This document shows positions 2,221 through 25,362 of a DNA stretch of 26,468 nucleotides, in pieces. Made by a program: the position numbers and the translations under genes. Position 1 is the stretch's first letter; each line of letters opens with the position of its first letter. A model generated the notes under the pieces. It worked only from the letters and a program-made list of their open reading frames with translations, was not told the origin of the DNA and searched no databases. Origin of the DNA: a virus (taxonomy: Duplodnaviria > Heunggongvirae > Uroviricota > Caudoviricetes). The DNA lies in the IMG/VR virus record IMGVR_UViG_3300005663_003096, one strand, 5' to 3'.

Positions 2221-2248
2221 CAAATATGACAAACCTAGTTTTTCGCAA
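2221..2248 (-). promoter_or_regulatory. TTGCGA-N16-TA promoter-like motif facing the YunG-like gene
   Basis: Minus strand reads TTGCGAAAAACTAGGTTTGTCATATTTG, about 30 nt upstream of ATG 2191. Confidence 0.6.
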
Positions 2249-2332
2249 TGTTCTATCTTGCAATCCCTGAGTGCAACAGGAATATTATTCACAAAGCGGC
2301 GGGCGTTCCGCGGCAAGACAAGGATTTCATGA

Positions 2333-3061
2333 GTGCATTCGACGACCAGCTACGACGAAACGCGTGCAGCCCGGATTGATGCCGGCCTGAAGAAATACAT
2401 GAACAACGTCTATGGGATGATGTCCCTGGGTACCTTCGTGACCTTCGCGACAGCGTGGTACATCTATACGACCGAAGAACTGCTCAAAGTCTTCTTCAAT
2501 CCCGAGACATTGTCGCCAACGGGTTTGGGCTGGTTCGCCATTTTCGCGCCATTGCTGATGGTGATCCTGTTGTGGATGATCGAGCGGCCCTCCTCCCCTT
2601 TCGTGCTGAAGATGTTCTTTGCGCTCTTTGCGGCGTTGATGGGCATTTCGATGACCTCCATCTTCCTGTCCTTCGAGATCGGGTCGATCGCAAACACCTT
2701 TCTGATCACCTCGGCCGCCTTCGCCGGTCTGTCTCTCTGGGGCTATACGACAAAGAAGGATCTCACCGGTCTCGGTGCATTCTGCTTCATGGCATTGTTT
2801 GGGTTGATCGCAGCCTCGGTGCTGAGCCTGTTCATTCAGTCGACAGCATTTGAATTTGCAGTCAATCTGGCGGGCGTACTGATCTTTGCGGGCCTTACGG
2901 CCTATGACACCCAGCACATCAAGACCGAGTATGTGAACCAGATTCATTCATCCTGCGATGATGAGATCGAGAAGTCGGCCGTTATGGGGGCTCTTGAGCT
3001 CTACCTGGACTTCATCAACCTCTTTTTGCGCATTCTCGCGGCGACCGGTAAGAAGAAGTAG
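2333..3061 (+). CDS. yccA: Bax inhibitor-1/YccA-family membrane protein
   Basis: About 7 hydrophobic segments. Motifs ID.GL..YM..VYG.M, F.IT..AFAGLSL.GYTTKKDL, GLTAYDTQ.IK and GALELYLDFINLFL are present. GTG start lies 8 nt after AAGGA. Confidence 0.93.
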   Translation: MHSTTSYDETRAARIDAGLKKYMNNVYGMMSLGTFVTFATAWYIYTTEELLKVFFNPETLSPTGLGWFAIFAPLLMVILLWMIERPSSPFVLKMFFALFAALMGISMTSIFLSFEIGSIANTFLITSAAFAGLSLWGYTTKKDLTGLGAFCFMALFGLIAASVLSLFIQSTAFEFAVNLAGVLIFAGLTAYDTQHIKTEYVNQIHSSCDDEIEKSAVMGALELYLDFINLFLRILAATGKKK

Positions 3062-3088
3062 CAACCCTGTTCCGAAGGGAATGCCCTG

Positions 3089-3118
3089 AAAGGCCCGGCG
3101 GTAGCCGGGCTTTTTTAT
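3089..3118 (+). terminator. Rho-independent terminator after yccA
   Basis: GCCCGGC-GGTA-GCCGGGC hairpin (3093-3110) followed by TTTTTT. Confidence 0.85.
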
Positions 3119-3180
3119 TGATACCCCGGACTAAATGCCGGGATATCCACAACTCATCCCTCTCGTTGATCCATCGCGCG

Positions 3181-3208
3181 TTGCGAAAAATGGCATTGTG
3201 CATATCCT
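3181..3208 (+). promoter_or_regulatory. TTGCGA-N16-TA promoter-like motif facing ftsH
   Basis: TTGCGAAAAATGGCATTGTGCATATCCT, about 40 nt upstream of ATG 3250. Confidence 0.6.
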
Positions 3209-3249
3209 CTGTTTGCGGCGAATAGGCCGTCCAAACTTCAGGATATGAC

Positions 3250-5184
3250 ATGGCCATTACTCCCCCGCGCAAACCCAAAACCCTCACGCTTGTCGCCTTT
3301 GTTGTCTCGCTGATCGTAAGTTTGACATGCACATATCTGCTCTTCGCTCCCGAAGAAACGAAGGAGTGGCCCTTCACGGCAGTGGATACGGCTGACGAAG
3401 TGCCACTGTCCCGGTTCAAAGATATTCTCACTGAAGATGGCGCCGGACGCCGGGTCGCTATCCTGAAAGACAAGATCCTGATCGAGATGGTCGAAGGCGC
3501 TGGCGATGTCATTTCCGAGCAGGAGCCCTTCTTTAATTTCTCGAAGTCAGGCGACGCCGAGGAGCTTGAGGCGGAGGGGGAAGAGATCGAGGGGGATGTC
3601 CTCTCTGTCGATATTCCGCGTTACAACGACCCATTCCTCAATGATCTGATCCGCGAGGACCTGGGCAGCTCGAACTTCGAGGTGGGTGTCTTTGCTGATG
3701 ACGCAGGATTGACCGGTTTGCAAAAGTCGTCGATCGCCTTCCAGATCCTCTTTGTCGTTCTGATCGCCTTCATGGTGTTGAAAATGATGGGCGTGGGTGG
3801 CAGCAGCTTTGGCACTGAACGCGGGTATTCCATCATCCAGCACAAGGACCTTCCGGTAGGTCTGAAGGATGTTGCAGGCCTCGATTCAGCACGCGAGGGT
3901 GTCGAAGAGGTTATCGGCCTGCTGCGCGATGAAGGCGATGTAGGTATGGCCGGCGGCCGCCTGCCCCGCGGTATGCTGCTTGATGGCCCTCCGGGCACCG
4001 GCAAAACCTTGATGGCGCGTGCCATGGCCAAGGAAGCCGGGGTGAATTTCATCTCGATCGACGCTTCTTCCTTGAACCAGATGTTCGTGGGCCTTGGCGC
4101 CATGAAGATCCGCAGCATCTTCCGCAAAGCCCGCAAACTTGCGCCCTGCATCATCTTCATCGATGAGATCGACGCCATGGGCCGGGCCCGTGGGTCTTCG
4201 GACAGCTCCGGGGCACGCGAAAGCGATGCCACACTTAACGCCCTGCTCACTGAGCTTGATGGATTTGATGCGCGTGCCGGCATCTTCATCATCGCGGCCA
4301 CCAACCGCGCGGAAATCCTTGATCCCGCGCTGACCCGCCCGGGCCGGATCGACCGTAAGATCACCCTGACCCTGCCCGATATCAAAGCACGCGAAGAGAT
4401 CCTGGCCGTACACTGCCGCGACAAAACCCTGGGGGAGGACGTCAATCTCCATGCCATCGCAGCTACAGTGTTTCAGACCTCAGGTGCTGAACTTGAGAAC
4501 CTGGTCAACGAGGCGGCCCTGGCGGCCGGCCGCGAAGGGCGCAAGGATATCCTCATGGAGGATTTCACCACTGCTCGCGACAGGCTTCTCCTGCCTCAGT
4601 CCGGCGGCAGCATCAAACTTCTGGAAGACGAGCGTCAGTTGACGGCCGTACATGAAGCAGGGCACGCGGTCATTGCCTTGGGGTCTGAGCACTCCGACCC
4701 GGTCGAGAAAGTCACGATCACGCCGCAGGGCGCGGCCATGGGCTTCGTGTTGCAGTCTCCTGAACGGGACCGCGTCTTCGAGACAGTGGCGCGCCTCAAG
4801 GCCCGGTTGCGGGTGGCTGTTGCCGGGCGCGAGGCCGAGCGTCTGATCTTTGGGCCTGACATGATCACCACCGGTGCGGCCTCTGACATCCGCCAGGCCA
4901 CGCAGATCGCGCGCGCCATGGTTACGACCTATGGCATGTCCGAGCTGGGCTTCATGGTCATCGACCCGAAAGATCCGACACTCTTTGATATGAACAACCC
5001 GCCCTCCCGCGTCATCGCGAAGATCATCGATGAGGCGATCGACGATGTCCGCATGGAGCTGAAGGAGCGGCGCGAAGGGCTGGATCGTCTGACCGACGCC
5101 CTGCTGGAAACCGAGACCATTTCTGGTGTGCGGGCACGTGAGATCGTCGAGGGAAATATGAAGGGGGCGTTGTCTGCTGCCTAA
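3250..5184 (+). CDS. ftsH: ATP-dependent zinc metalloprotease FtsH (divergent copy)
   Basis: Two N-terminal TM segments, Walker A GPPGTGKT, pore loop MFVG, Walker B IIFIDEID, SRH ATNR..ILDPAL.RPGRIDR, Zn motif HEAGH and peptidase M41 motif GAASDI. Confidence 0.96.
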   Translation: MAITPPRKPKTLTLVAFVVSLIVSLTCTYLLFAPEETKEWPFTAVDTADEVPLSRFKDILTEDGAGRRVAILKDKILIEMVEGAGDVISEQEPFFNFSKSGDAEELEAEGEEIEGDVLSVDIPRYNDPFLNDLIREDLGSSNFEVGVFADDAGLTGLQKSSIAFQILFVVLIAFMVLKMMGVGGSSFGTERGYSIIQHKDLPVGLKDVAGLDSAREGVEEVIGLLRDEGDVGMAGGRLPRGMLLDGPPGTGKTLMARAMAKEAGVNFISIDASSLNQMFVGLGAMKIRSIFRKARKLAPCIIFIDEIDAMGRARGSSDSSGARESDATLNALLTELDGFDARAGIFIIAATNRAEILDPALTRPGRIDRKITLTLPDIKAREEILAVHCRDKTLGEDVNLHAIAATVFQTSGAELENLVNEAALAAGREGRKDILMEDFTTARDRLLLPQSGGSIKLLEDERQLTAVHEAGHAVIALGSEHSDPVEKVTITPQGAAMGFVLQSPERDRVFETVARLKARLRVAVAGREAERLIFGPDMITTGAASDIRQATQIARAMVTTYGMSELGFMVIDPKDPTLFDMNNPPSRVIAKIIDEAIDDVRMELKERREGLDRLTDALLETETISGVRAREIVEGNMKGALSAA

Positions 5185-5337
5185 AGCTTGAGGGGTCAGC
5201 GGCATGAGAACCGCTGGCCTCACCCATGCCAAGATCTGAACCTGCGGGTTTTCATGCGGCCCGGTTAAGATGTCATTGAACTGCACTACTTGGGCTGTAC
5301 TGCCGCAGGGGGTGTTTATGAATGAAGAGGAAATACA

Positions 5338-6207
5338 ATGGGTTATGCAAGTGAATTTGAGAGGCTCTTAATCGGTGTAGTATCTACAAGCGCGGGTCTC
5401 GCGCTTACATTTGCTGCTGCCGCCGCTGTCGGGAGCCACTTAATCAACAGTGATACCACCGGAAGTGATGTTCTGTGGAAAGCGCAGCTTCGCATGCAGA
5501 AAGTGGAAACTCTGTTTATAGATTCCCATGAGCAATATTTGGTTGGCCTGCATTCTGGTATGATCACTGCCGGGGTCGATATCTCTCAAGAGACAAATGA
5601 GCGAATGGTACCATTTATCCAGGCAGACCCTGTGTTGGCTGGGAGCCCAGATGCGGATCATCTAGCGCTTTTTGAGATCCGCGCCTTAGGTGCAATCGCA
5701 GGCACTCAAGGGCACAGCGAAGCTGATCTGGTGAACTACCTAGACTATGTAGAGGGTCTATCGGAAAATCTCGCTGAGACACGCGTCGCGCATGAGAAGA
5801 TGTTCAATGGCCTCTCAGGAATCTCGTCCGGTGACAGGCTGGCAAAGATCGCACAGTCTGTCGCCTTTCTGGCGGATGATATGTTCGAAGATGTCACAGC
5901 ACGCGAAGCTGTCGATAGCATTTTGAAGTCGGCTTTTGATGAAGGCTATGAGCCAAGCCAAGATGACCTCAACCAATTGAGGAACGCAATGGATCAGGCG
6001 ACAGCGGAATCCGCCCGGATCGCTTCAACAGAGGACATCCTGATCTCAGCCAAAGAAACCCTGGTATCGCGCAACATGGGCGCGCTTTCCGAAACAATCA
6101 AAGCGGAAGATGTGATCGTTGCCTGCCCCTTTGGTCTGGGTGACAAGACACCCACAGATGCAGAACAGCTGCTAACGTCTGACGATGCCTGTGAACCCGG
6201 GAAATAA
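5338..6207 (+). CDS. Hypothetical protein with N-terminal membrane anchor or signal (289 aa)
   Basis: Long ORF with RBS GAGGA. Hydrophobic LLIGVVSTSAGLALTFAAAAAV precedes an acidic helical body. No family recognised. Confidence 0.75.
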   Translation: MGYASEFERLLIGVVSTSAGLALTFAAAAAVGSHLINSDTTGSDVLWKAQLRMQKVETLFIDSHEQYLVGLHSGMITAGVDISQETNERMVPFIQADPVLAGSPDADHLALFEIRALGAIAGTQGHSEADLVNYLDYVEGLSENLAETRVAHEKMFNGLSGISSGDRLAKIAQSVAFLADDMFEDVTAREAVDSILKSAFDEGYEPSQDDLNQLRNAMDQATAESARIASTEDILISAKETLVSRNMGALSETIKAEDVIVACPFGLGDKTPTDAEQLLTSDDACEPGK

Positions 6208-6232
6208 AAAAACCCACCGCATAAGCGGTGGG
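6206..6232 (-). terminator. Rho-independent terminator between convergent genes (U-tract on minus strand)
   Basis: A7 followed by CCCACCGC-ATAA-GCGGTGGG. Confidence 0.8.
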
Positions 6233-6258
6233 CTCTACCCAATCAGAGACCGCGCGCG

Positions 6259-6558: not shown

Positions 6559-6625
6559 GTCGTTTCCTTTTCAGGGTTTGCTGTTTTCCATGACGATCTT
6601 AGAGCGTCACTGAGAAAACCTTCGC

Positions 6626-6991: not shown

Positions 6992-7123
6992 GATAATGTC
7001 CTCCGCCTCCAGTGTATCATATCACACCGCAAGATCAGTCCTGGTCCAAATCGACCTCAGAGCTCATCACTTCAAAAAGTCGCTCGATCTCGGCCTCGGC
7101 CTCCTATCCGGAATGGTCTGCAT

Positions 7124-7558
7124 TCAGTAAAGCATACCGCGGTGCGGATATGGGTTGGGTGTCCCGTCGACGCTGGGGTAGTCCAGTACAAAGCCCCCAT
7201 CGAGCATATACTCAAAGAACCCCACCAAAGCCGCATCGTCCATCATGCCGTTGTAGCGCGCAACAACCGGCGCCATGGCGCATTCCGTTTTAGGACCCCA
7301 GATGCCATCATCGTTGCCATCATAGAGATCGGCGTGACGCAGAACATGCTGCAGGTTTTTGCGTGTTGATTGCGGCATGCTGCGGAAAACAGCCTCTACG
7401 CGCAGCATGTTCGCCTTGGAGACCGCCATGTCGCAGACGCCTGCGGCTGTCATTGCGGGCGCATTTTTCGCAACATGGGTGTGATGCGCGCCATGCGCAT
7501 GGGCTGGCACTGTGAATGCTGCCATTGCGGCGGCGGTAAGGGCGAGGGATCTGATCAT
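7124..7558 (-). CDS. Secreted protein with a peptidoglycan-binding-like (PG_binding_1) motif
   Basis: Signal peptide MIRSLALTAAAMAAFTVPAHA followed by a His-rich stretch. LQHVLRHADLYDGNDDGIWGPKT matches LQ..L...G.Y.G..DG.WG..T. RBS AGGAG. Confidence 0.75.
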   Translation of the reverse strand: MIRSLALTAAAMAAFTVPAHAHGAHHTHVAKNAPAMTAAGVCDMAVSKANMLRVEAVFRSMPQSTRKNLQHVLRHADLYDGNDDGIWGPKTECAMAPVVARYNGMMDDAALVGFFEYMLDGGFVLDYPSVDGTPNPYPHRGMLY

Positions 7559-9070: not shown

Positions 9071-9265
9071 AGGAGTGCGGCTATTAGGTCCGAGGGCCTG
9101 TTGACGCCACTGTAACGCGTTGCGAAAACCAAGCGAAAGCTAGGGTCGGTCTCATTCTGGGGGTTATCCACAATTAAGCCTCTTGGGCTGCATGGAAGTG
9201 AAGCTTTCGAGCGGCTAGATTTGCGAATAACGGCGCAAGAAGCGATACCTACAGATGGAGCACCC

Positions 9266-11273: not shown

Positions 11274-12143
11274 CTACTTCAAAGAGCGTGTGCTTTTTTG
11301 GAGCTTCTTCATCTTGAGGACAGCGAAGGCTTCCTGCTCACGCAACCTCCGGATCTGTGTCTTATACTCATCCTGAGTGATCTCACCGCGCAGACGACGA
11401 AGCTTCAGAATGGACTCGGCATCACGATGATCTGCGATTTTGCTGCGCATGCCGTCCAATTTCTCACGGCTCTCCTGAACCTTATTGTCAAGATCGACAG
11501 TGAGGGGCGGGACAGCTACCGGCGGCAATGCGACAGGAGGGAGTGGAAGCGGTGGGACGGTTACGTCAGGCGTGTCGGAGGTGCTCTCATCGCTTGATCC
11601 GCTATTCGACTCTTTAGCTGTGTCGCCATCTTCAGTGGATCCTGTGGGGTCGCTTGTGTCAGGTGCTGTCCCATTCTGATCGGTCGAGCCGTCAGAATCA
11701 TCTTCCGGTCCCATTTCGCGGTCATCATCTTCCTCGGCGGCCTCTTCTTCCGCCTCTTCGGCTTCTTTAGCCGCTTCCTCGGCGGCCTCTTCTTCCGCCT
11801 CTTCGGCTTCTTTAGCCGCTTCCTCGGCGGCTTTCTCAGCCTCTTTAGCAGCCTTCTCGGCTTCCTTCGCCGCCTTCTCGGCTTCCTTCGCCGCCTCTTT
11901 AGCGGCCTTCTCGGCTTCCTTCTCAGCTTTTTCGGCGTCCTTAGCAGCCTTCTCGGCTTCTTTTTCAGCTTCCTTCGCAGCCTTTTTGTCCTTCTTGCCT
12001 TCTTTGCCAGACTTGGAAGCAGCAAGGGTAACGAATGAAGGCAGAGTGGTGAAACTATGTGCTGAGGTGATATTGGCGGCGAAGCTGGGTGTCGTCACCA
12101 AGCAGAATGTCATAGCAATTGCGATACGTGATACCGAGTTCAT
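11274..12143 (-). CDS. Secreted or periplasmic low-complexity protein: (K/E)EAEKAA helical repeats, acidic and Pro-rich linker, SHOCT-like C-terminus
   Basis: AAGGAG RBS before ATG 12143. Signal peptide ends ...TPSFAA. C-terminal LRRLRGEITQDEYKTQIRRL. Confidence 0.8.
   Translation of the reverse strand: MNSVSRIAIAMTFCLVTTPSFAANITSAHSFTTLPSFVTLAASKSGKEGKKDKKAAKEAEKEAEKAAKDAEKAEKEAEKAAKEAAKEAEKAAKEAEKAAKEAEKAAEEAAKEAEEAEEEAAEEAAKEAEEAEEEAAEEDDDREMGPEDDSDGSTDQNGTAPDTSDPTGSTEDGDTAKESNSGSSDESTSDTPDVTVPPLPLPPVALPPVAVPPLTVDLDNKVQESREKLDGMRSKIADHRDAESILKLRRLRGEITQDEYKTQIRRLREQEAFAVLKMKKLQKSTRSLK
11729..11831. repeat. Exact 45-bp tandem repeat (2 full copies plus a partial), intragenic
   Basis: Unit CTTCCTCGGCGGCCTCTTCTTCCGCCTCTTCGGCTTCTTTAGCCG starts at 11729, 11774 and 11819. 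It encodes a 15-aa AAEEAAKEAEEAEEE-type unit. Confidence 0.95.
11851..11895. repeat. Exact 21-bp tandem repeat (2 copies), intragenic
   Basis: GCCTTCTCGGCTTCCTTCGCC at 11851 and 11872, encoding AKEAEKA heptads. Confidence 0.9.
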
Positions 12144-12385
12144 GTGGGATCTCCTTACGAGAAGATGCATCTTTAAGGTATAACTAGAATTTTCGCAAAC
12201 GGTTCTATCTCATTTGCGTGAGAATCGACGTAACGCGAGGTTGCGGCTGCAAACCGGGCGGCGACGTGGTGGTTTGACCATATAAATAATGAAAGATTGA
12301 GCCTATTAGCGGTTTTGCGAAAAATCGGCTTGCTAGTCTGTTTCCAGTATGTCAGAAAGTTTATGAAAGCCAAAAGGAGATGTTT

Positions 12386-13600
12386 ATGGTTTCGCCTGTT
12401 TTAAGAGGCATCAGTTGTTCGGACTACCGCGCAACTTTAGCAGATCTCGAAGAAGATGGATGGTCGATCAGCAAAACCAATGGAGGCCATCTAAAGCTAG
12501 AGCACCCAAAGGCCAGCAAAGCTATTTTCGGTCCATGCTCCCCATCGGATTATCGCTCCAGGCACAATGTAGTTAGGAAATGCAATATCGCGATCGGCGA
12601 AGCAGCACGAGAAGAGAAAGTCTTCGGTCCAGCTCCCAAACAAAAGGAACTATCCGACCGCGAGTTCACCAGCATCCTGAAGAGCAGCAAGAAAATGCGA
12701 AAAACAAACCGTCAGAAGCATGTGCCGACACCGAGCCACTTCCTTACAGATGCTGCCTCACCCGCGGATCCAGCTACGCCGAAGCGCAAGCTCGGCACAC
12801 TTGCCCTGCCCGCATCCAAACAGGCCGTAAAGGCCAGTGCAGAAATCGCATCATCGCCCATGCAGGCGGTTGCGAAAAAGCTGAATATTACCAGCGCGAC
12901 AAATCAGAAAGCGCCACCTCAGAAGAATAAGTCGGCGCCTACCCTCTCCAACGACAAAGACAAGGACACCAATACCATGCTCGCTTCCGTTTCCCCTACA
13001 CCAGCCCCCGCGCAGCCTCAGGCCCCGGCTCACACATCCACACCCGCACCGCAGCCTGTCTCCAGGAAGCCCGATCCTCGTCAGGCAGGTTCCACCGCCA
13101 TTCCGTCGATCTCCGCCGACGTTCTTGCGCTTGCAATGAAAATCACATCCGGCGAGATGATGCAGGTCGAAGTGACGGCTGATATGGTTGGCCAGACGCT
13201 CTACTACGATGGTCAGATCGTCCTGTCGGGCGCGGTGACCTCGAAGCCTGCGAAGTCTCTGTCGGTGGTGCCTTCTGCGACAGCAGCAGCGCCTGCGGCG
13301 ACCCCCGCTCCTATGCCTGCCGCGGCAAGCGATACGTCGCACTCCTCTGCCGTTGCGACCAGGGGTCTCTCTCAGAATGAAGCGATCACGTCGACCATCC
13401 TCGAAGCGCTGAAGGTTCTCGGCCCCGAACTGGTGACATTCAAGGAATTGACCCATGCGACCCTGCCGGATCTGCCCTATAAAAGCTTTAATTCGGCGCG
13501 CTCCTCCCTGCCTCTTCACGTCAACCGCATGATCGCAAGCGGCATGATCGAGGAAGGGACCAAGGACAACCAGAAGGCCTACCGCGTTAAGGCGTCCTAA
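12386..13600 (+). CDS. HicA-like N-terminal domain, low-complexity linker, small central domain and C-terminal winged-helix-like domain
   Basis: LEEDGWSISKTNGGHLKLEHP...FGPCSPSDYRSRHN fits the HicA/YcfA dsRBD-like pattern GW......G.H..L.H...TPSD.R..N. ITSTILEALKVLG...TFKEL...RMIASGMIEE...YRV fits a wHTH. AAGGAG is better spaced to ATG 12386 than to 12380. Confidence 0.75.
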   Translation: MVSPVLRGISCSDYRATLADLEEDGWSISKTNGGHLKLEHPKASKAIFGPCSPSDYRSRHNVVRKCNIAIGEAAREEKVFGPAPKQKELSDREFTSILKSSKKMRKTNRQKHVPTPSHFLTDAASPADPATPKRKLGTLALPASKQAVKASAEIASSPMQAVAKKLNITSATNQKAPPQKNKSAPTLSNDKDKDTNTMLASVSPTPAPAQPQAPAHTSTPAPQPVSRKPDPRQAGSTAIPSISADVLALAMKITSGEMMQVEVTADMVGQTLYYDGQIVLSGAVTSKPAKSLSVVPSATAAAPAATPAPMPAAASDTSHSSAVATRGLSQNEAITSTILEALKVLGPELVTFKELTHATLPDLPYKSFNSARSSLPLHVNRMIASGMIEEGTKDNQKAYRVKAS

Positions 13601-13619
13601 ACTCTCAAGATATGTGGAT

Positions 13620-13651
13620 AAGGGGAGGGTGCGTGTCGCCCTCCCCTTTTT
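13620..13651 (+). terminator. Rho-independent terminator after the HicA-like fusion gene
   Basis: AAGGGGAGGGTG-CGTGT-CGCCCTCCCCTT followed by a T-tract. Confidence 0.85.
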
Positions 13652-13654
13652 ATT

Positions 13655-13682
13655 GTGCGAAAATGAAAAACCAACATATTTA
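13655..13682 (+). promoter_or_regulatory. Variant promoter-like motif GTGCGA-N16-TA
   Basis: GTGCGAAAATGAAAAACCAACATATTTA lies directly after the terminator and about 17 nt before GTG 13699. Confidence 0.55.
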
Positions 13683-13698
13683 CGCAAAGGGCGCGTCT

Positions 13699-14271
13699 GT
13701 GGGCAACTACAAGAGCAACAAATTCGACAGGAGCCTCGCTCTTCGTGTGACCATCGCCAGCCTTATCTGTCCATTCCCCATCGTTCTGCTGGTTCTCTTA
13801 GGGCCAACGCTCATGGCGCTTTTAGGGGGTCTGCCGGGGATGATCCTAACGATGATCCTTTGTTGCCTTGTTATTGCGCTGGTTGCAGAACTGCTCAAGT
13901 TGGTGCCCTTCCCCCTGGTGACAGTTATGAGGGACGACACGCCGCCTTCGGATTTGGAAATCGCGCGCACACGCCTGTGGCACACTTTCAGCGCACTGCC
14001 GCTGTCATTCGCTGCAGCTTTGCTCTGGACAGTCTCTGCCGCCTTGTCATTGGAGTATTATGCAGCGCCAATCATGCTGATCATTGTCAGCCCCATGACG
14101 ATCGCATTTCTGATCCTGCACCTCGACAGCGAAACAGCCGCTGAGGCCCTGCGAAAATCACTGCGCACATTCATCCTGATGTTGCTGGTCTCATTTATGT
14201 TTTCCCCAGAGCCCGCTGAGTTGGACAGCGTGGGGGCAGCGGATAACGCATCTGATAGCTTTCCGCGGTAG
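13699..14271 (+). CDS. Hypothetical multi-pass membrane protein (about 5 TM)
   Basis: Long hydrophobic segments. The track start at 13612 lies within the terminator and promoter. The in-frame GTG 13699 has AAAGGG upstream. Confidence 0.7.
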   Translation: MGNYKSNKFDRSLALRVTIASLICPFPIVLLVLLGPTLMALLGGLPGMILTMILCCLVIALVAELLKLVPFPLVTVMRDDTPPSDLEIARTRLWHTFSALPLSFAAALLWTVSAALSLEYYAAPIMLIIVSPMTIAFLILHLDSETAAEALRKSLRTFILMLLVSFMFSPEPAELDSVGAADNASDSFPR

Positions 14272-15266: not shown

Positions 15267-15401
15267 TTAGGGGCGCTCGCCGCGCACCGGCCACTTCAGC
15301 TTTGCTTTCAGCGACCCAACCATCTTGCCGACGCTGAAGCTCGAAAATGCGACGATACATACGAAGAGAATGAGGAAGGTCAGAATAAGAAGGATCTGCA
15401 C
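15267..15401 (-). CDS. Small single-TM protein (44 aa, GTG start)
   Basis: AAGGAG-N7-GTG gives MQILLILTFLILFVCIVAFSSFSVGKMVGSLKAKLKWPVRGERP. It is preceded by the promoter-like motif at 15430-15457. Confidence 0.6.
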   Translation of the reverse strand: MQILLILTFLILFVCIVAFSSFSVGKMVGSLKAKLKWPVRGERP

Positions 15402-15429: not shown

Positions 15430-15457
15430 TATTTATGCAGTTTGCGATTTTTCGCAA
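15430..15457 (-). promoter_or_regulatory. TTGCGA-N16-TA motif containing a perfect TTGCGA-N4-TCGCAA inverted repeat
   Basis: Minus strand reads TTGCGAAAAATCGCAAACTGCATAAATA. Confidence 0.6.
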
Positions 15458-16279: not shown

Positions 16280-16307
16280 TTGCGAAAAACACGGAATGAC
16301 ATATTTT
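16280..16307 (+). promoter_or_regulatory. TTGCGA-N16-TA promoter-like motif facing the 16399 gene
   Basis: TTGCGAAAAACACGGAATGACATATTTT, about 90 nt upstream of the ATG. Confidence 0.6.
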
Positions 16308-16398: not shown

Positions 16399-17661
16399 AT
16401 GCCGACAATTAACGAAGCATTCAAAACCCATGGCATCCGTGCCGAATATGAAGGCATGCCTGCGATGGTCGTGCCGGTAACGCCGGAGCTTGCAGAAACG
16501 CTCGACCAGGAAAAGGTTAAAAAGCCTGCAATTTCTGGCAATATGCTCTTGAGCTGGAACAACGGCGATGAGCGCAAAGGTTTGGTTATCAACAGCCTCG
16601 CAGCCAATGATATCAATCTCCTGATCAAACGCCAGGACGGCAGCGACAAGAAGGTCAATGCCACCAGCATGACAGATGCAGCGCTTCGGGCGCTCCGTCT
16701 GCGCAATGCGCACCGCGAAGATGTGGCTCAGGTCGAAGCAGCAAATGCCAAGGCTCAGGAAGAATATCAGGAAGCGGTCGATCGCGGCGAAAATCCCGCC
16801 GAGCCTGAAGAGCGCAAAACCGAATTCACTGATGCATCCTTCAAGGGCATCGACGGTCTGGCGACATGTCTCCGCAGCGTGATGATTGGGATCAAGGAAG
16901 ATGTGCTTTCCGATATCAAGGTCAAAGGCAAAGCAGACTCGTTCCTTGGCGAAATGCGTGAACTGACGCGCGACGAGCTGACCAGCTCTGATAAAGCCAA
17001 AGCACTTGAGGCGCGCCGCCTGAAAGCTGAAATCGCGATGCTTGCTCCCGAACATGAGAAAGCTTCCGCCACTATCATGCCGGCCGCTTATGAAGGTGAC
17101 GGTGAGGCCGCTCGCGATCTGATGGATGCTATGCCTCATGATCCGGAAGGTCTGAGTGCCGCACAGCAGTCCGTTATGGCGCAGGCAGGCAACATTGCTT
17201 TGGTTAACCGCCTCTTCTCGGTTGCGACAACCACGCCGGTCATGGCTGTCGAAAAGCGCGCCTTGTCGCATACTGGCTTTGCAACCTTCGCACAGAATCT
17301 CGCCAAGTACGAGAATAAGGATGCGAGCGAAATGGTTCTTCCCCGCATGGCAGCCGTGACCGGCGATGCTATGGAAGCCTATAAATGGCAGGGTAAGATT
17401 TATACCAAAGATGGTGCAGATATCCTTCTGATGCGCGATGAATATGCCGCCTTCGCCTACGCCTGGGACACTGAGAGCCGCGTCGGTGATATCAACATCG
17501 AAGCGTCGGTACTGACAAACCTGACCCAGGCTGATGTGCCGACTGAAGAAGAGCTGGAAGAGCTGAAGGAAATCCATGAAGCCCTGAAGTTCGACAACGG
17601 TGCCGAAGTGAACTTCGATTGGGACGATGAGCCCGAGGAAGAAGACGTCTTCGAAGCCTGA
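16399..17661 (+). CDS. Hypothetical protein (420 aa) with an acidic C-terminal tail
   Basis: Strong RBS TAGGAG, its own promoter-like motif and terminator. Tail ...FDWDDEPEEEDVFEA. Confidence 0.88.
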   Translation: MPTINEAFKTHGIRAEYEGMPAMVVPVTPELAETLDQEKVKKPAISGNMLLSWNNGDERKGLVINSLAANDINLLIKRQDGSDKKVNATSMTDAALRALRLRNAHREDVAQVEAANAKAQEEYQEAVDRGENPAEPEERKTEFTDASFKGIDGLATCLRSVMIGIKEDVLSDIKVKGKADSFLGEMRELTRDELTSSDKAKALEARRLKAEIAMLAPEHEKASATIMPAAYEGDGEAARDLMDAMPHDPEGLSAAQQSVMAQAGNIALVNRLFSVATTTPVMAVEKRALSHTGFATFAQNLAKYENKDASEMVLPRMAAVTGDAMEAYKWQGKIYTKDGADILLMRDEYAAFAYAWDTESRVGDINIEASVLTNLTQADVPTEEELEELKEIHEALKFDNGAEVNFDWDDEPEEEDVFEA

Positions 17662-20923: not shown

Positions 20924-20927
20924 TCTG

Positions 20928-21152: not shown

Positions 21153-21158
21153 TTGCTG

Positions 21159-21317
21159 TCAGCGCCCCTGAGTGGGGTTTGCGTGAATGATCCAAGCGAT
21201 CACCGCGAGGAGCATCCCGCAGACCATAAGGCCGGTGCCATGACCGGTCTCTGCGTTGTAGAGCCCGCCCCCTACGGAGATCATCGAGATGGCAGCGCCG
21301 GCGAGAAGATTGCTCAT
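21159..21317 (-). CDS. Small two-TM protein (52 aa), absent from the ORF track
   Basis: ATGA overlap with the MazG-like stop. Read by hand: MSNLLAGAAISMISVGGGLYNAETGHGTGLMVCGMLLAVIAWIIHANPTQGR. Confidence 0.65.
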   Translation of the reverse strand: MSNLLAGAAISMISVGGGLYNAETGHGTGLMVCGMLLAVIAWIIHANPTQGR

Positions 21318-21931
21318 GCCACCACCTTCAGTGTCTGATGGTGGGAATAGCGCATCTTGCGCGCCATGATCTCTTCATAGGCATCAGGCACATCTTCAAA
21401 GAAATCGTCCGGCAGAAAATGAACGGCGAGCCAGAAGTCGAAAAGGTCCAGCGTCAACTGCTGCCTGTTGTCCTGCTGCGGGAAATCGGGGTGATAACTG
21501 TCATAGCCGTGGCGCAGGGTCTTGCCCACGGTCTGAACGATCTTTGCTGCCCTGTTCGACAGGATGTGCAGCTGCTCCATCTCCGCCAGATCGACGCCGT
21601 TCACAACGATTGTATTGCCCATTTGCGACATCTCGATCAAAGCTTCGGAGTATGGGCTTACATAGGAAGATTCGTTTTTCGCAAAGTAGTTCGCGAAAGC
21701 CTCGATGCTGAGGTCCGCTTCCATGAACTCTGCGACGGCCAAGAGGTCGGCGACTTCCCGGCCGAGATCGGCGATATTGTCATCCAGCGCCCCTTCGAGA
21801 TTCTCCGAGTACGGACCATCTTGCAACATCTGGGTTGCCGACTGAACCACTTCCCCTGCTTCCTCGGAAAGCATGGCCAGGCGCTCGGTTTCTGCTGCTG
21901 TCAGTTTATTGAAATTCTCGTGCTTAGACAT
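21314..21931 (-). CDS. Tandem-duplicated MazG-like NTP pyrophosphohydrolase
   Basis: Repeat 1: LAMLSEEAGEVVQ...LGREVADLLAV (EExxE...ExxD). Repeat 2: LHILSNRAAKIVQTVGKTLRHGYDSYHP...LTLDLFDFWLAV. RBS AAAGGA. Confidence 0.8.
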   Translation of the reverse strand: MSKHENFNKLTAAETERLAMLSEEAGEVVQSATQMLQDGPYSENLEGALDDNIADLGREVADLLAVAEFMEADLSIEAFANYFAKNESSYVSPYSEALIEMSQMGNTIVVNGVDLAEMEQLHILSNRAAKIVQTVGKTLRHGYDSYHPDFPQQDNRQQLTLDLFDFWLAVHFLPDDFFEDVPDAYEEIMARKMRYSHHQTLKVVA

Positions 21932-21969
21932 ATTGATATCCTTTATTAAGTTCTGTGCTGCAAAGCATT

Positions 21970-23019
21970 TTAGGTGGTTTTCTGCTGCCGAAGGGCATCA
22001 GTGAGAGCTTCCGGAGAGACACGCTCTGCGGAGATGTAGAACAGCGGTCGACCGGTAAGGTCTGTATCGCCGGGCACGTTAAGGTAGGGCGTATCAAATC
22101 CCGGCCGGATGGTTCCCAGGAATGTCATGCCAAGACTGCGGAAGGCATTATAGGCCATGTCCGCAGTGATCTCTTTGATGTCGATCTGGATCCGGAAGGC
22201 TGTAACATCCTGGGACGCGGATCCAAGGACTGTGAAGAAACTGGAAATGCCCGGATCGAGAACCTCACTCGCCACGACCTCCGCCGATTGGGAAACCACT
22301 GGCACCACCTTGGTATGGGCGCCAAGGAGACGTGCTTTGACATCGCATTCGAGGGCTGCAACGACCCGTGCGGCGGGCACCAACCATGAAACGGCCATGG
22401 CTGCGGTCAATGTGGTGTCATCCTCTTCTGCAAACACGAGAACCGTTTTCGCATGCATGACCCCTGCCCTGCGCAGATCACGCTCGGCGACCAGATCTTC
22501 GGATCTAACATAGTGCAGCTCGCTGGTATCAAAGGCCGGAACCTTGGTGGTCATGAGAATGATGTCGCGGGGCTGCAGACCGCCTGCCAGTAGATCGATG
22601 ATCACGCGTTGAGTGGCCTTTGGGTGCAACCCGATGATGACCGTTTTGCCCTTTTCGGCGCTGTAATCGCCAAATCCATCCATGCGTTTCCTCCAATAGG
22701 CAACTGAGGTCTGAGAGACCTTTGCCAGTAAAACAGTGAAAAATGTGAGTGCGCCCGGAAAAAGCCATACCGAAACAAAGACCCTGCCGAGCTCGGTCGC
22801 TGGCGACAGGTCCCCATAGCCAATCGTGCTCGCCGTCGTCGAATAGAAGTAGATAAAGGTGCTGATACCCATCAGATGCATCTCGCCTGCCAGCCGCAGG
22901 CCGAGATAGGTCACCAGCATATGCGCGGCGGTGAGCAACCAGAAGACTTTCCAGTCGAGCTGGGCCACCGCTTGATAGGCGCGCGCGCCCATAATCTCGA
23001 TGAGGCGGAAAAGGACCAT
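21970..23019 (-). CDS. Two-TM potassium channel with a C-terminal RCK (TrkA-N-like) domain
   Basis: Pore helix and selectivity filter TTASTIGYGD flanked by TMs. RCK-like TVIIG...G..DL.RAG...A..V...DD.TL. Confidence 0.9.
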   Translation of the reverse strand: MVLFRLIEIMGARAYQAVAQLDWKVFWLLTAAHMLVTYLGLRLAGEMHLMGISTFIYFYSTTASTIGYGDLSPATELGRVFVSVWLFPGALTFFTVLLAKVSQTSVAYWRKRMDGFGDYSAEKGKTVIIGLHPKATQRVIIDLLAGGLQPRDIILMTTKVPAFDTSELHYVRSEDLVAERDLRRAGVMHAKTVLVFAEEDDTTLTAAMAVSWLVPAARVVAALECDVKARLLGAHTKVVPVVSQSAEVVASEVLDPGISSFFTVLGSASQDVTAFRIQIDIKEITADMAYNAFRSLGMTFLGTIRPGFDTPYLNVPGDTDLTGRPLFYISAERVSPEALTDALRQQKTT

Positions 23020-23020
23020 G

Positions 23021-23296
23021 TCAGGCGTTGATCACGATCAGCAGGCTGCGCATGAGAAGCTTACCAATAAGAATGGCTGAAATGGTGACAGAGGCTGTCA
23101 GAACTGCGCTATAGGACGTCATCTGGAAGAGAATGTCCTGATTGGGCAGCATCGCACGACCATAGTCTTGAAGAATTAAAACCCAGCTCTGGGCACCCTT
23201 ATCACCCAAGGCTTTGAGGACCATTACAGCGGCAGCGACATTCACCATTAGAAAGACGGCTGGCGATTTGAACGCAACGGGGTCCTTGATGGTCAT
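23021..23296 (-). CDS. Small two-TM membrane protein (91 aa), probably co-transcribed with the K+ channel
   Basis: Two hydrophobic segments and RBS AAAGGA. The stop is 1 nt before the channel ATG. Confidence 0.72.
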   Translation of the reverse strand: MTIKDPVAFKSPAVFLMVNVAAAVMVLKALGDKGAQSWVLILQDYGRAMLPNQDILFQMTSYSAVLTASVTISAILIGKLLMRSLLIVINA

Positions 23297-23326
23297 GTGC
23301 TGTCCTTTTGAGTGTATCGCGAGCGT

Positions 23327-23475
23327 TTGCGAAAAAGCTACAGTTGAGCAATACCCAAGACTGATCTGGGCTGCAAGGCATTTGCGAAAAATGTACTAAT
23401 TTATCGTAATCCAGATTATACCCTAAGATATGTGGACAACCACCAAGCTGATCTTGCGATGATGGTTTGCGAAAA
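23327..23475 (+). promoter_or_regulatory. Three tandem TTGCGAAAA copies upstream of the CAP lipoprotein gene
   Basis: Copies start at 23327, 23382 and 23467 in a divergent intergenic region. Confidence 0.55.
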
Positions 23476-23511
23476 ATAGACGTTAAGCAGACATCAATAG
23501 AGGCTGAATTT

Positions 23512-23985
23512 ATGAAATTGACCGGATTTGCCCTGGCCTGCGCTGCAGTCCTTTCAGCATGTACCGCTGCACCTGTGCCGGAATATACGAATGACGTGCC
23601 GCATAGCATTCCGTTGAACGGACATGTTCGCCTTCTTGAGGAAGTCAGTGAAATCCGCCGCGCCCAGGGCCTCTCGATTGTTGCATCAAGTGCGGGAGCG
23701 GATCAGGCTGCCCATCGCGCCGCCGCGGATATGGCCCGCCACGGGACCTTCAGCCATACGGGCTCAGATGGCTCCTCTGCCGCAGAGCGCCTGCGGGATG
23801 CGGGCTGTTCGCACGGTCTGGCCGAAAACATTGCCAAGGGCAATGCATTGAACAGCGGCAACATCATACAGACCTGGATGGACTCACCTGGGCACCGCGA
23901 AAACATCCTCAGATCGGAGATGCTCTGGATGGGCATTGCGAAGGTCGATGATGTTTGGGTCATGACCCTCGCGGAACGTTGCTGA
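23512..23985 (+). CDS. CAP (SCP/PR-1/YkwD-like) domain lipoprotein
   Basis: Lipobox VLSAC. Motifs AADMARHGTFSHTGSDGS, AENIA and WMDSPGHRENIL. ATG 23512 follows GAGG. Confidence 0.92.
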   Translation: MKLTGFALACAAVLSACTAAPVPEYTNDVPHSIPLNGHVRLLEEVSEIRRAQGLSIVASSAGADQAAHRAAADMARHGTFSHTGSDGSSAAERLRDAGCSHGLAENIAKGNALNSGNIIQTWMDSPGHRENILRSEMLWMGIAKVDDVWVMTLAERC

Positions 23986-23991
23986 TCAAGT

Positions 23992-24906
23992 TTAGTTAGG
24001 TTGGTCAGGATCGTCGTTGGACATGTCTTGTTCTGCTGTCAATTCAACAGCAAAAGGATCTTGTACATGCTCGCCAAGTGGGGCGAGAGCGATCTCGATC
24101 CGGGGAAACTTGGGATCTAAGGCCCTCTTTTCGCGGCCCATCTCGACCTCGACCCTCTCGGTTGGATTGACCGCCAGGCGCTCAACCGGCACGCGCGCGT
24201 CGACAACCTCCAGCTCACCATGGGCCAACAAGGCGTTGGGCTCATTGGGGCCGCTGGTCATGAAGCCCATAACCTGAGCTGCCTGATACACCGGCGCCTG
24301 CATTTCACTGATGCTTCGTGCCTCACTGTATGGCTTATCCCCAAACGCGATCTCTACCGAAGCAACAGATGTATGGATCATGCCTTCAAGGCCTTCGCGG
24401 AAATGCTTGCCAACATCATCCCACCGCGCCCCATAATCAGCTTCGATCTTGGCATTCAGAGCCTCAGGATTGATCTTCTCATCCCCCTCAAGCGTGGCTT
24501 GATTCAGCCGGTAGATGTCGCTCTTGGGCATTTCGACAACCTCGAGATAACCGCTGAGCGCAGCCTCATCCCACTGTCCGGAAATGCCTTGCGCGTAGGC
24601 CTGATCATAGACCTGTGCCATCTGGTCACGGATCGTCTCCTGCGTCGCAGCCTTCACGACGGCCAGACGCTCTTCGATGCCAAAATTCGACCAGCCGTTT
24701 GCTTTCATTCCATCTGAGGCGCCAAGCAGGACTTCGGCCGCATAGTGCTTTGCGGGAAGATCCAGCATGCCGTTGAAACTATGTTCGACATTAGAATTCG
24801 CAGCGAGATTCGAAAGTGCGGCGGCTCCGACGAGGCCTACAACCTGTGCGACTGCTGCTGCTATCACGTAGGGTTTTAATTTATCAAGAGTGCGATCATC
24901 GAGCAT
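23992..24906 (-). CDS. Hypothetical protein with an N-terminal membrane anchor (304 aa)
   Basis: AGGA RBS before ATG 24906. TM segment YVIAAAVAQVVGLVGAAAL and an acidic tail. Confidence 0.78.
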   Translation of the reverse strand: MLDDRTLDKLKPYVIAAAVAQVVGLVGAAALSNLAANSNVEHSFNGMLDLPAKHYAAEVLLGASDGMKANGWSNFGIEERLAVVKAATQETIRDQMAQVYDQAYAQGISGQWDEAALSGYLEVVEMPKSDIYRLNQATLEGDEKINPEALNAKIEADYGARWDDVGKHFREGLEGMIHTSVASVEIAFGDKPYSEARSISEMQAPVYQAAQVMGFMTSGPNEPNALLAHGELEVVDARVPVERLAVNPTERVEVEMGREKRALDPKFPRIEIALAPLGEHVQDPFAVELTAEQDMSNDDPDQPN

Positions 24907-24987
24907 GTGAGTATCCTGTAGGTTCTTGCTTGTGTGCAAGTCTCCGGCAGGATTGCGAAAATTCCAAACACATGAGTCTCTTTGCGT

Positions 24988-25332
24988 TCAGGCTTCCTCG
25001 AAAGCAGGTTGGTTGAAAAGCGCGCCAAGCGTGACCTCATGAAAATCAAAGCACGATCCCATCTCATCTTTGACAAGGACCACCACACCGTCATCAGAAT
25101 CCTCCGCCATAATCTCGAGCGCGCGGCCGCGTCCAGCGTAGATTTGGAGAGGCAGCGTCCCTGCCGCCTTAAGGGTCGCGAAGGCCGCACTGTCAAAGAG
25201 TGAGGCCAGGCTGTTGGCCTCAGAAACCTTGGCACCATAGGCGAGATCTCTGTATTGCCCGGGCCCTGGCCCTTCGGCCGCCAATGGATCCGCCCTCAAA
25301 AGACAGGTATCGCCCATATAGATCGTGTGCAT
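24988..25332 (-). CDS. Hypothetical protein (114 aa)
   Basis: AGGAG RBS 30 nt after the PcfJ-like stop. No family recognised. Confidence 0.7.
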   Translation of the reverse strand: MHTIYMGDTCLLRADPLAAEGPGPGQYRDLAYGAKVSEANSLASLFDSAAFATLKAAGTLPLQIYAGRGRALEIMAEDSDDGVVVLVKDEMGSCFDFHEVTLGALFNQPAFEEA

Positions 25333-25362
25333 TTCTGCGCTCCTATTGTTTTCGCAAACGCA

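Follow-up and report, generated by a model that had tools for sequence, protein, structure and literature searches.

The 10-mer TTGCGAAAAA, which recurs throughout a giant element of marine Rhodobacteraceae, is probably the site through which a single element-encoded DNA-binding factor controls much of that element, since the word is kept in distant relatives and stands at control level in host-like genomes. We tentatively read it as the operator of an element-encoded global regulator, similar to the operators/stoperators of mycobacteriophage L5, with TTGCGA doubling as a -35 hexamer in some promoters; this particular reading has rather less than an even chance of being correct. To our knowledge, nearly all genes of the giant extrachromosomal elements of marine Rhodobacteraceae are of unknown function, and the control of these elements is not understood.

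In the following, the window is the whole stretch of DNA that was analysed (26,468 nt), and the word is TTGCGAAAAA, whose positions 2-9 form the core TGCGAAAA; TTGCGAAAA is its 9-mer form, and the full form is the core preceded by T>G,A and followed by A. The window contains 15 exact copies of TTGCGAAAA, whereas dinucleotide shuffles average 0.36 and never exceed 2. The first-pass annotation, which had counted at least 15 copies, gave the coordinate and strand of each correctly, and its i.i.d. expectation of 0.1 is of the same order as the shuffled mean. Gene calls, taken from identical metagenome contigs, place 11 copies between genes, and a further copy (15449, minus strand) lies upstream of a 44-codon ORF, in agreement with the 12 intergenic copies counted originally. 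The other three (7465-, 12870+ and 21676-) are within genes, all on the sense strand. The exact copies and variants in the window are as follows.

2240..2248, minus strand: exact copy, 57 nt 5' of the ATG of a YunG-like gene (1577-2191, minus), with CATATT/TATTTG at +20/+22; of the class in which TTGCGA can act as -35
3181..3189, plus strand: exact copy, 69 nt 5' of an FtsH-like gene (3250-5184), with TATCCT at +22
7465..7473, minus strand: intragenic copy, sense in gene 7124-7558 (minus), with no -10-like hexamer after it
9120..9128, plus strand: exact copy in the divergent gap 9071-9265, 146 nt 5' of a DUF805 gene, with TTGACG 13 nt upstream of the copy
9221..9229, plus strand: variant TTGCGAATA (A8->T), 45 nt 5' of the ATG of the DUF805 gene (9266)
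12190..12198, minus strand: exact copy, 55 nt 5' of gene 11274-12143 (minus), forming a back-to-back pair with the next copy in a divergent gap
12315..12323, plus strand: exact copy, 71 nt 5' of gene 12386-13600 (plus)
12695: variant ATGCGAAAA, in the same gene (12386-13600) as the copy at 12870
12870..12878, plus strand: intragenic copy, sense in gene 12386-13600
13655..13663, plus strand: variant GTGCGAAAA, directly 3' of a strong intrinsic terminator (13620-13648 and T-run), with CATATT at +20
15449..15457, minus strand: exact copy, 56 nt 5' of the 44-codon ORF (15267-15401, minus), with TAAATA at +22
16280..16288, plus strand: exact copy, 119 nt 5' of gene 16399-17661, with TATTTT at +22
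21676..21684, minus strand: intragenic copy, sense in gene 21314-21931 (minus)
22446-22454, minus strand: variant ATGCGAAAA, sense, in the gene next to 21314-21931
23327..23475, plus strand: three tandem exact copies (starts 23327, 23382 and 23467; spacing 55 and 85 nt), 185, 130 and 45 nt 5' of a CAP-domain gene (23512-23985)
24953..24961, plus strand: exact copy between two minus-strand genes, against both, with no -10-like hexamer after it; the data set has 8 such antisense copies between genes, this one included
25349..25357, minus strand: exact copy in a 30-nt intra-operon gap; the Shine-Dalgarno sequence AGGAG follows it after 3 nt, and the ATG at 25332 is only 25 nt away, hence too near for a -35

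Marine metagenome contigs of the giant element, in whose family contigs of 426-656 kb occur, match the window identically, and the word continues beyond the window at ~0.9 per kb. A contiguous 52 kb contains 30 copies, 24 of them in the non-coding 12.5%; position 10 is A in 23 of the 30 copies of this composite around the window, and positions 2-9 are invariant. Single-mismatch variants in intergenic DNA show changes at the first base, at the last base and A8->T only, and the core behaves as all-or-none, A8->T alone being enriched among single-base variants at positions 2-9. Four relatives together provide 101 copies of TGCGAAAA in 111 kb, an effective sample of fewer than 101 because orthologous sites in the relatives are not independent. 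The word is non-palindromic, and outside it the sole positional signal consists of a pyrimidine (+10) followed by a purine (+11). The word is the top 8-mer in three relatives with sigma factors (described below) 71%, 55% and 54% identical to that of the element (69%, 50% and 52% in the A1 alignment).

Five Rhodobacteraceae genomes (2.9-4.8 Mb; host-type, not the host itself) hold 8-26 copies of the 10-mer each, equal to the counts of the reversed control word, and cellular loci hold 19 copies in 1.5 Mb. The density in the element is ~50-90x that in Rhodobacteraceae genomes. The earlier proposal of an element-specific signal shared by unrelated genes is thus borne out by a word that is dense in the element, at control level in Rhodobacteraceae and kept in distant relatives; where equal density on the host chromosome had been named as counter-evidence, the five genomes lie at the level of the control word. 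A host-wide Rhodobacteraceae promoter or regulon motif is not supported, as these five host-type genomes have no comparable density. The element carries plasmid-type genes (KfrA_N and ParB_N-like). Plasmid and phage collections gave no megablast match to the window, the literature returned the word only within primers, and nothing relevant was found there on jumbo phages of Sulfitobacter. A scan of IMG/VR for tandem copies gave 34 stretches, none of which shares a protein with the element, and the denser stretches that were checked (L300, L272 and L294) are regularly spaced repeats.

The word is ~17x denser between than within genes, and its strand tracks the local gene direction. By gap type, 43 copies fall in 7.6 kb of divergent and 26 in 5.7 kb of co-directional gaps; none falls in the 1.4 kb between convergent genes, and operon-internal gaps also carry the word. 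Where orientation is informative, 45 copies are sense and 13 antisense (27:5 within genes and 18:8 in co-directional gaps). Compared with codon shuffles, the intragenic sense copies are 16-fold enriched (27 vs 1.7 expected), while 5 antisense copies are found where 2.1 are expected; intragenic copies fall in all three reading frames. Eleven of the 61 co-oriented intergenic sites are 11-33 nt from the ATG, nine of them at 23-29 nt, and ten of these eleven, those at 23-33 nt, stand 1-12 nt before a Shine-Dalgarno sequence, also where the divergent gap is wide. At such places the word cannot work as a -35. In addition, a -10-like hexamer (four TAnnnT and one CAGCAT) ends 7-9 nt 5' of the word at five of the near-ATG sites. 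Word starts 30-43 nt before the ATG are nearly absent, and -10-like hexamers themselves peak in this same zone, at -44 to -23 from the start codon with a mode at -36.

Downstream of the word, TAnnnT occurs within +10..+26 at 29 of 50 upstream sites, compared with 6-10 of 50 in three control windows, and this association is orientation-specific. The hexamers begin 0 to 16 nt past the word without a favoured register; the word therefore occupies anywhere from -38 to -13. The first-pass annotation had described a -35/-10 arrangement with a fixed 16-nt spacer, which applies to a minority of sites, as hexamers occur at all offsets from +10 to +26. All five sites for which it was claimed do carry the longer form TTGCGAAAAA-N10-CATA, and C(A/G)ATACC does follow 9221 and 23327 as described, but the form is not general: over the 101 sites, CAT at +20 and TAnnnT at +22 are each found six times, neighbouring offsets are similar, and TAnnnT at +22 does not exceed that at +10, +13 or +18. 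The L106 ortholog of the 2240-2248 site retains ATA at an unchanged offset (TATACT). Scanned for a strict sigma-70 consensus, the window gave fewer matches than shuffles and none at the word. All four relatives retain the host-type promoter TTGACA-N17-CAG(G/A)T(T/A) 5' of the 254aa/HTH_3/deacetylase operon. One relative has the word within the spacer of this promoter, another has it 15 nt upstream of the promoter, and the remaining two have it ~60 nt upstream. The conserved promoter thus stays put while the word shifts around it.

From how the word is distributed, from its invariance, conservation and restriction to the element, and from its placement with respect to start codons and -10-like hexamers, we infer that a protein binds the word and represses. 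As an operator, TTGCGAAAAA (core TGCGAAAA) would be the asymmetric binding site of one protein of the giant element, and its copies would overlie the core promoter of ~60% of the transcription units, a majority, and would do so in two registers flanking the -10 hexamer, the registers being assigned from -10-like hexamers, which are weak evidence in Alphaproteobacteria. In the first register, the -35/spacer zone, TTGCGA may double as -35, for example at the five sites mentioned above. In the second, the word would follow closely on the -10, covering the transcription start and immediately preceding the ribosome-binding site. Additional copies are found on the sense strand within genes and between genes of an operon. 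The likeliest action would be repression, with RNA polymerase occluded at promoters and elongation blocked in a polar manner at internal copies, and one protein would keep most of the element silent or jointly controlled, as the L5 repressor does. As to which protein this may be, proximity alone makes a candidate of a conserved Xre-type HTH protein (90 aa, window 1-273); Pfam and PHROGs scans of ~40 nearby proteins gave this generic HTH protein and no gp71-like repressor, and PHROGs gave no other repressor candidate among 20 nearby unknown proteins. Several observations count against the operator reading. The strand bias in co-directional gaps is only 18:8, TA at +22 in about one-fifth of the upstream sites fits TTGCGA as a -35, and at 8 sites a TTG hexamer 12-13 nt 5' of the word would put GAAAAA in the -10 position. 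A simple occluding repressor needs no fixed orientation relative to the -10, so the orientation-specific association also counts against it.

The first-pass annotation had named a sigma factor or a regulator as the reader of the motif. The element does encode a sigma factor, and a regulator fits the sites better than sigma recognition. This divergent RpoH-like protein (317 aa, 8 kb upstream of the window) has sigma-70 regions 2 and 4, scores below the RpoH cut-offs (NF005693, 224.8 bits vs 315; TIGR02392, 170.5 vs 323) and forms its own clade, with 50-78% identity within the clade and 38-40% to cellular RpoH in the A1 alignment, and up to 44% to cellular RpoH among 120 hits. No close relative was found in plasmid or phage collections or in 401 Rhodobacteraceae species genomes, the best identity in IMG/VR was 36%, and two genome-contig scans and one metagenome scan returned mainly cellular RpoH genes. 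The main rival explanation is that the word is the -35, or -35-replacing, part of an element promoter read by this sigma factor or by a polymerase-recruiting activator, which we consider unlikely but worth serious weight. In Rhodobacter RpoH promoters, TTG is the key -35 determinant, and A-12 and T-9 are those of the -10 (PMC3441632). Six sites match TTGCGAAAAA-N12-TATnT within one base, TA is found most often at +22 (9/50), every ortholog of the sigma gene carries the word 44-79 nt 5' of its ATG, and the lack of copies in convergent gaps is as expected of a promoter. The word also directly follows terminator hairpins at three or four places, where nothing 5' of it can belong to the promoter. 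On the other hand, the spacing to -10-like hexamers has no favoured value, and the word lies inside the spacer of the conserved TTGACA promoter in one relative. A start ~35 nt past the word fits the class at 50-63 nt; it would fall at or past the ribosome-binding site, and within the gene for the closest sites, at 11 of 61 sites as well as at the sigma genes of two relatives, where the word is 44-46 nt from the ATG and the ribosome-binding site is at +31. In addition, the 27 intragenic sense copies stand without -10s (a -10-like hexamer follows only 4 of all 32 intragenic copies), and the word has nine to ten invariant bases, where sigma region 4 reads about six and tolerates mismatches.

It is improbable that the word acts after initiation, in the non-template strand or in RNA, either as an ops-like loading or pause site for an element-specific elongation factor or as a 5'-leader motif UGCGAAAAA, which would serve an RNA-binding protein, a nuclease or a small RNA. 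Such a role would suit the 16-fold enrichment on the intragenic sense strand without antisense enrichment, the ten sites between the likely start and the ribosome-binding site, and an all-or-none 8-base core that resembles base pairing or single-strand recognition; in one relative the word is ~50 nt into the leader of a gene, and the orthologs of that gene have it at the start. However, a -10-like hexamer lies 3' of the word at 29 of 50 sites, some hexamers being conserved between orthologs, and from such a promoter the word is not transcribed. The eight antisense intergenic copies are also far over chance, and the ~110 kb examined contains no NusG-like or obvious RNA-binding gene. Equally improbable is that the word is a self-mark read during transcription, in the exposed non-template strand or nascent RNA, and not a classical operator. 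An element factor would then handle the element's transcripts differently from those of the host (anti-termination, protection or selective decay), which would account for the sense-only intragenic copies and for those just before ribosome-binding sites.

Still less credible is that the word is itself a start-proximal, single-element promoter, in which TGC-GAAAAA serves as an extended -10-like box, or as the initiator of a non-canonical polymerase, and the start lies 1-7 nt after the word. TG-n-hexamer is the extended -10 layout, the 8 sites with an upstream TTG hexamer (three sigma-gene orthologs and the tRNA-Glu operon included) have a 17-nt spacer to GAAAAA, the sole positional signal outside the word is the +10 pyrimidine with the +11 purine, and the ribosome-binding site never begins before +11. 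Against this, GAAAAA is without the -7 T required by sigma-70-family factors, and a start at about +16 would lose the ribosome-binding site at three close sites. Moreover, leader lengths would fall into two modes and skip 14-27 nt, the range most frequent in bacteria, and the TAnnnT enrichment at +10..+26 would be left without a role. Finally, a sigma-54 reading with TTGC as the -12 element is ruled out because nothing is conserved 10 nt upstream, a terminator-linked role because hairpins flank 10-11% of sites, which is the background, and a DNA uptake sequence, Chi or KOPS-type motif because of the missing host-type enrichment, the ~17x intergenic bias and a strand that follows local genes.

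One invariant word before most transcription units offers an experimental handle on the element's putative master regulator, and it can be used as a marker for fragments of this element family in metagenomes. If the L5-like reading is true, genome-wide silencing by polar asymmetric sites would not be peculiar to actinobacteriophages; if the sigma reading is true, the element would have an orthogonal transcription system.

Among known systems, RpoH (sigma-32) promoters of R. sphaeroides and E. coli have TTG at -36 to -34 and a TATnT-like -10 (PMC3441632). The six word copies that match within one base and the RpoH-like sigma factor of the element are points of likeness; unlike these promoters, in which only TTG is strongly conserved in the -35, the word has seven further invariant bases, most of its copies have no in-register -10, and many are at places where a promoter could not function. 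A short exact word that replaces or supplements the -35 also precedes many genes in phage T4, as the MotA box of middle promoters, and in Mimivirus, as the early-gene octamer AAAATTGA. These words keep a fixed distance to their -10 or transcription start, the MotA box standing 12 +/- 1 bp from the -10; for the present word, the distance to the hexamer varies by at least 16 bp, and there is a second register past the -10. In IncP-1 (RK2) plasmids, a few plasmid regulators, KorA and KorB, act on perfectly conserved operators before most backbone operons at varied promoter distances, and the plasmid-type genes of the element recall this system. Unlike the word, Kor operators are palindromes bound by dimers, number about a dozen per plasmid and have no strand bias or intragenic enrichment. 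L5, a Cluster A mycobacteriophage with the repressor gp71, has about 30 sites in 52 kb, or ~0.5 per kb, and here one asymmetric word likewise covers the whole element, at ~0.9 per kb. The word differs from the L5 sites in being 10 bp with an A-tract, not 13 bp, in belonging to an element of 426-656 kb in a proteobacterial host, in having most copies in divergent promoter gaps and not in short gaps between co-directional genes, and in that the ~40 nearby proteins gave no gp71-like two-domain repressor with Pfam or PHROGs. The more than 20 operators/stoperators of L5 are asymmetric, follow the direction of transcription and occur both at promoters and inside transcription units (PMC9283540). Similarly, copies of the word, which includes a -35-like hexamer, are found at inferred promoters (29 of 50 upstream sites with a -10-like hexamer) and inside transcription units, and their orientation correlates with the direction of transcription, although less strictly (18:8 in co-directional gaps).

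The window of 26.5 kb contains 15 copies of the word TTGCGAAAA, compared with 0.36 on average and never more than 2 in dinucleotide-preserving shuffles, and the coordinates and strands of all 15 copies agree with those in the first-pass annotation. A one-mismatch search of the window found only 8 more sites, where about 7 are expected by chance, and the exceptions to this chance level are changes of the first base and the variant TTGCGAATA. The word is in fact a 10-mer: A follows the 9-mer in 23 of 30 aligned copies, and no other position from 30 nt upstream to 60 nt downstream exceeds about 0.4 bit. Across four relatives (the window's element and three syntenic ones) the core TGCGAAAA is all-or-none, and the intergenic single-base variants affect only the first base, the tenth base, or A8, which becomes T. 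These site statistics cover 101 sites in the ~110 kb read, of elements spanning 426-656 kb, and orthologous sites are counted though they are not independent. Pairs of copies recur with their starts 53-56 nt apart, a distance of about five helical turns, and also 114-115 nt apart, which hints at cooperative binding or looping. The pairs are as follows, L001 and L018 being loci on contigs of the same element or its variants:

window 23327/23382, word pair
L001:1270/1323, word pair
L018:1621/1676, word pair
L018:5977/6033, inverted word pair

Two window proteins, looked up by exact sequence, are present on many metagenome contigs. Over the stretches compared, the window is matched at 100% identity by one contig of 88.6 kb from marine sediment and by one of 95.9 kb from a different run. 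Neighbouring genes are carried by contigs of up to 426 kb in an NCBI assembly, by a 529-kb contig in a Pseudosulfitobacter pseudonitzschiae assembly (GCA_048984855.1, from an isolate) and by the largest such contig, of 656 kb, in a JGI metagenome. The word is also present on the 529-kb contig. The majority of the element's genes have no family assignment; the recognisable ones encode KfrA_N, ParB_N-like, ATP-dependent DNA ligase, T5orf172, FtsH-like protease, deacetylase, RTX and GluRS-like proteins, and the nearest cellular homologs of the element proteins are from Rhodobacteraceae. We regard the window as part of a giant extrachromosomal element from the Roseobacter group. One of its variants, that on the 426-kb contig (JBIFFS010000004.1, NCBI assembly), has an insertion that is absent from the window's own:

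L016:13867-15630, IS605-type insertion (Y1 transposase and OrfB) separating the DsbA-like gene from the DNA ligase gene

A 52.2-kb composite joins the window to 19.2 kb of upstream and 6.6 kb of downstream sequence. Its outermost 9.5 kb on the upstream side derives from L018, the contig of a close variant with 99.8% identity where the two overlap, and the remainder from identical contigs. The composite contains 30 exact 9-mers, 24 of them in the 12.5% of bases that are non-coding. In the three syntenic relatives, whose sigma factors show 71%, 55% and 54% identity to that of the window's element (BLASTP), TGCGAAAA is the top 8-mer, with 12-23 copies per 17-21 kb. Five Rhodobacteraceae genomes (2.9-4.8 Mb; three labelled Sulfitobacter) contain 8-26 10-mers each, equal to the reversed control word, and 80 cellular loci of 1.5 Mb in total contain 19 copies. 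Host-type genomes, which may not include that of the true host, thus stand at the control level instead of at equal density, and the word is therefore specific to the element, as had been proposed from the first reading. In addition, three IMG/VR contigs found by scanning for tandem copies (L300, L272 and L294) carry the word within regularly spaced repeats with a period of 66 or 73-77 nt; these are viral contigs with no proteins in common with the element, and their copies look like repeat arrays containing the word by chance.

The intergenic copies are distributed by gap type as follows:

divergent gaps, 7.6 kb: 43 copies
co-directional gaps, 5.7 kb: 18 sense and 8 antisense copies, a modest strand bias
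convergent gaps, 1.4 kb: 0 copies

A copy is found in 35 of 60 divergent directions, and the word therefore goes with promoter-bearing DNA. Among co-oriented sites at least 44 nt from the start codon, TAnnnT follows within +10 to +26 in 29 of 50 cases, compared with 6, 7 and 10 of 50 in three control windows of the same width, with the reservation that -10-like hexamers are weak evidence in Alphaproteobacteria and that registers relative to -10 are predicted. The hexamers are spread evenly across this interval; if the -10 is taken to span -12 to -7, the word would thus lie anywhere from -38 to -13, in the -35 and spacer zone. The distance from the word start to the next co-oriented start codon is bimodal, with tight groups at 23-29 nt and 44-63 nt, a single site within 30-43 nt and a tail that extends to some 200 nt. 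In the close group (11 sites, 11-33 nt from ATG) the word stands 1-12 nt before a clear Shine-Dalgarno sequence in 10 of 11 cases, and this adjacency is also seen in divergent gaps of 160-420 bp, where room is ample, for example at the DsbA-like gene, whose start codon is fixed by a twin-arginine-type N-terminus. Five of the 11 close sites instead have the -10-like hexamer on the upstream side, ending 7-9 nt before the word (TAnnnT in four cases and CAGCAT in one); one of these hexamers is kept between two orthologs (TAAGTT/TAACTT). This places the word at about +1 to +10. When the word is disregarded, TAnnnT upstream of all genes peaks 44-23 nt before ATG (mode -36), and this peak coincides with a 14-nt void in word positions, whose width is that expected if a 10-bp word must not overlap a 6-bp box. 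Therefore, the word can lie to either side of the -10 hexamer but keeps clear of it, a placement that is operator-like and not that of a core promoter element.

The first-pass annotation had read the word as a -35 with a fixed 16-nt spacer. The five sites it named do read TTGCGAAAAA-N10-CATA and match a sigma-70 or RpoH-type promoter within one base, but the arrangement mostly does not hold over the 101 sites: TAnnnT stands at +22 in 6 of 101, and +10, +13 and +18 are no lower. A strict sigma-70 consensus scan returned fewer sites than in shuffles. In RpoH promoters of Rhodobacter sphaeroides, the key determinants are TTG at -36 to -34, A-12 and T-9 (PMC3441632). That the word serves as a promoter element, recognised by an activator or by the RpoH-like sigma factor of the element, is unlikely, though worth serious weight: it accounts for the sites in -35 register and for the copies directly after terminators, and the element has a private sigma factor, but the close class, the spacer site and one third of all copies would have to be discarded. 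A -35 at the place of the close group would set the transcription start inside the gene, and this group therefore argues against a -35. Equally incompatible are the sigma genes of two relatives, where the word lies 44-46 nt from ATG with the ribosome-binding site at +31.

The sigma locus contains the following features:

L001:1332-2285, minus strand, sigma factor of 317 aa containing regions 2 and 4, some 8 kb upstream of window position 1
L001:2386-2790, upstream of the sigma gene, 790-bp gap with an AT-rich core of 31-36% GC (56% overall)

The top match of the protein is RpoH, at 225 bits compared with a family cut-off of 315, and it belongs to a clade of its own (50-78% identity inside, 38-40% to cellular RpoH, in an alignment of the element sigma factors with cellular RpoH), whose members sit on contigs of 100-656 kb. 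The word lies upstream of the gene in the orthologs examined; all four sigma genes examined also contain the word internally, once or twice, the codons concerned being different in the distant relatives, and in three of four the word is right at or after the stop codon, where the L108 locus has the variant TTGCGAATTT. In the gap, clustered GTAAC/GTTAC repeats (9 of the 42 in the 52-kb composite) flank the AT-rich core, a layout preserved in two relatives; the gap is a candidate replication origin with iterons.

The relation of the word to recognisable promoters also varies. One such promoter and two other features of the element are located as follows:

L001:8780-8917, promoter of the 254aa/HTH_3/deacetylase operon, which extends into window 1-1582
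window 13612-13760, strong intrinsic terminator (13620-13648) and T-run overlapping the next gene's called start (13633)
window 9164-9174, the L001:260-330 region, L105, L106 and L108 (other element loci), second recurrent word T(T/A)ATCCACAAT

The operon promoter reads TTGACA (TTGACT in L108)-N17-CAG(G/A)T(T/A) in all four relatives with diverged flanks; it is host-type, the clearest sigma-70-like promoter seen in the element. The word starts at the last base of this -35 in one relative and occupies the spacer; a second relative has it further upstream, ending 15 nt before the -35, and the distance is about 60 nt upstream in both the window's element and the relative closest to it. Upstream of a 115-aa gene, the word sits between TTGG(C/A)G and a conserved CTATAT. 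A TTG is found 7-8 nt upstream of the word at 12 of 69 intergenic sites, 11 of which are among the 50 upstream ones, and 18-19 nt upstream at 8 intergenic sites, and therefore several registers relative to -35-like hexamers coexist. For a single gene in the four relatives, the word is 52, 51, 115 and 24 nt from ATG: its presence is conserved and its position is not. At the terminator, two overlapping ORFs in different frames compete (13612-14271 and 13614-14144), and the GTGCGAAAA copy at 13655 probably precedes the true start of the gene called at 13633. The second recurrent word resembles a DnaA box and may be the site of a different regulator; in front of a 132-aa gene the palindrome CGGAC-N4-GTCCG comes after it, and three relatives keep this palindrome.

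Within 96 kb of coding DNA there are 27 sense and 5 antisense copies, compared with 1.7 and 2.1 in codon shuffles. The sense copies occur in all three reading frames and anywhere along genes, and a -10-like hexamer follows only 4 of the 32. Promoter models leave these copies unexplained, and they are explained by a polar elongation block or a transcript-read signal. We reserve a small share of belief for some other explanation of the word. Slightly less credible still is a signal recognised in RNA or on the non-template strand: sense-only internal copies and leader copies speak for it, but it is at odds with the many copies that have a -10 hexamer downstream of them. An initiator or extended -10-like promoter is highly improbable: the TG-n-hexamer form and TTG hexamers 12-13 nt upstream fit it, but leader lengths would then show an odd gap, and the TAnnnT enrichment downstream would have no explanation.

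Because it covers all site classes, we prefer, tentatively and at somewhat less than even confidence, to regard the word as an asymmetric operator for one element-encoded DNA-binding protein. From the distribution, invariance, conservation and geometry of the word, which are observed, we infer the binding, the repression and the identity of the protein. Candidate readers of the word are a 90-aa HTH protein and the RpoH-like sigma factor. At promoters, the bound protein and RNA polymerase would compete for the start or for the -35 and spacer, and within transcription units it would act in an orientation-dependent manner. TTGCGA resembles a -35 hexamer, so the operator could double as a -35, as it may do in about a fifth of promoters, and this is what the first-pass annotation saw. 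The pattern matches the defining pattern of the L5 repressor operators and stoperators, in which more than 20 asymmetric 13-mers are located at promoters and in intergenic spaces, oriented with transcription, and inversion abolishes function (PMC9283540).
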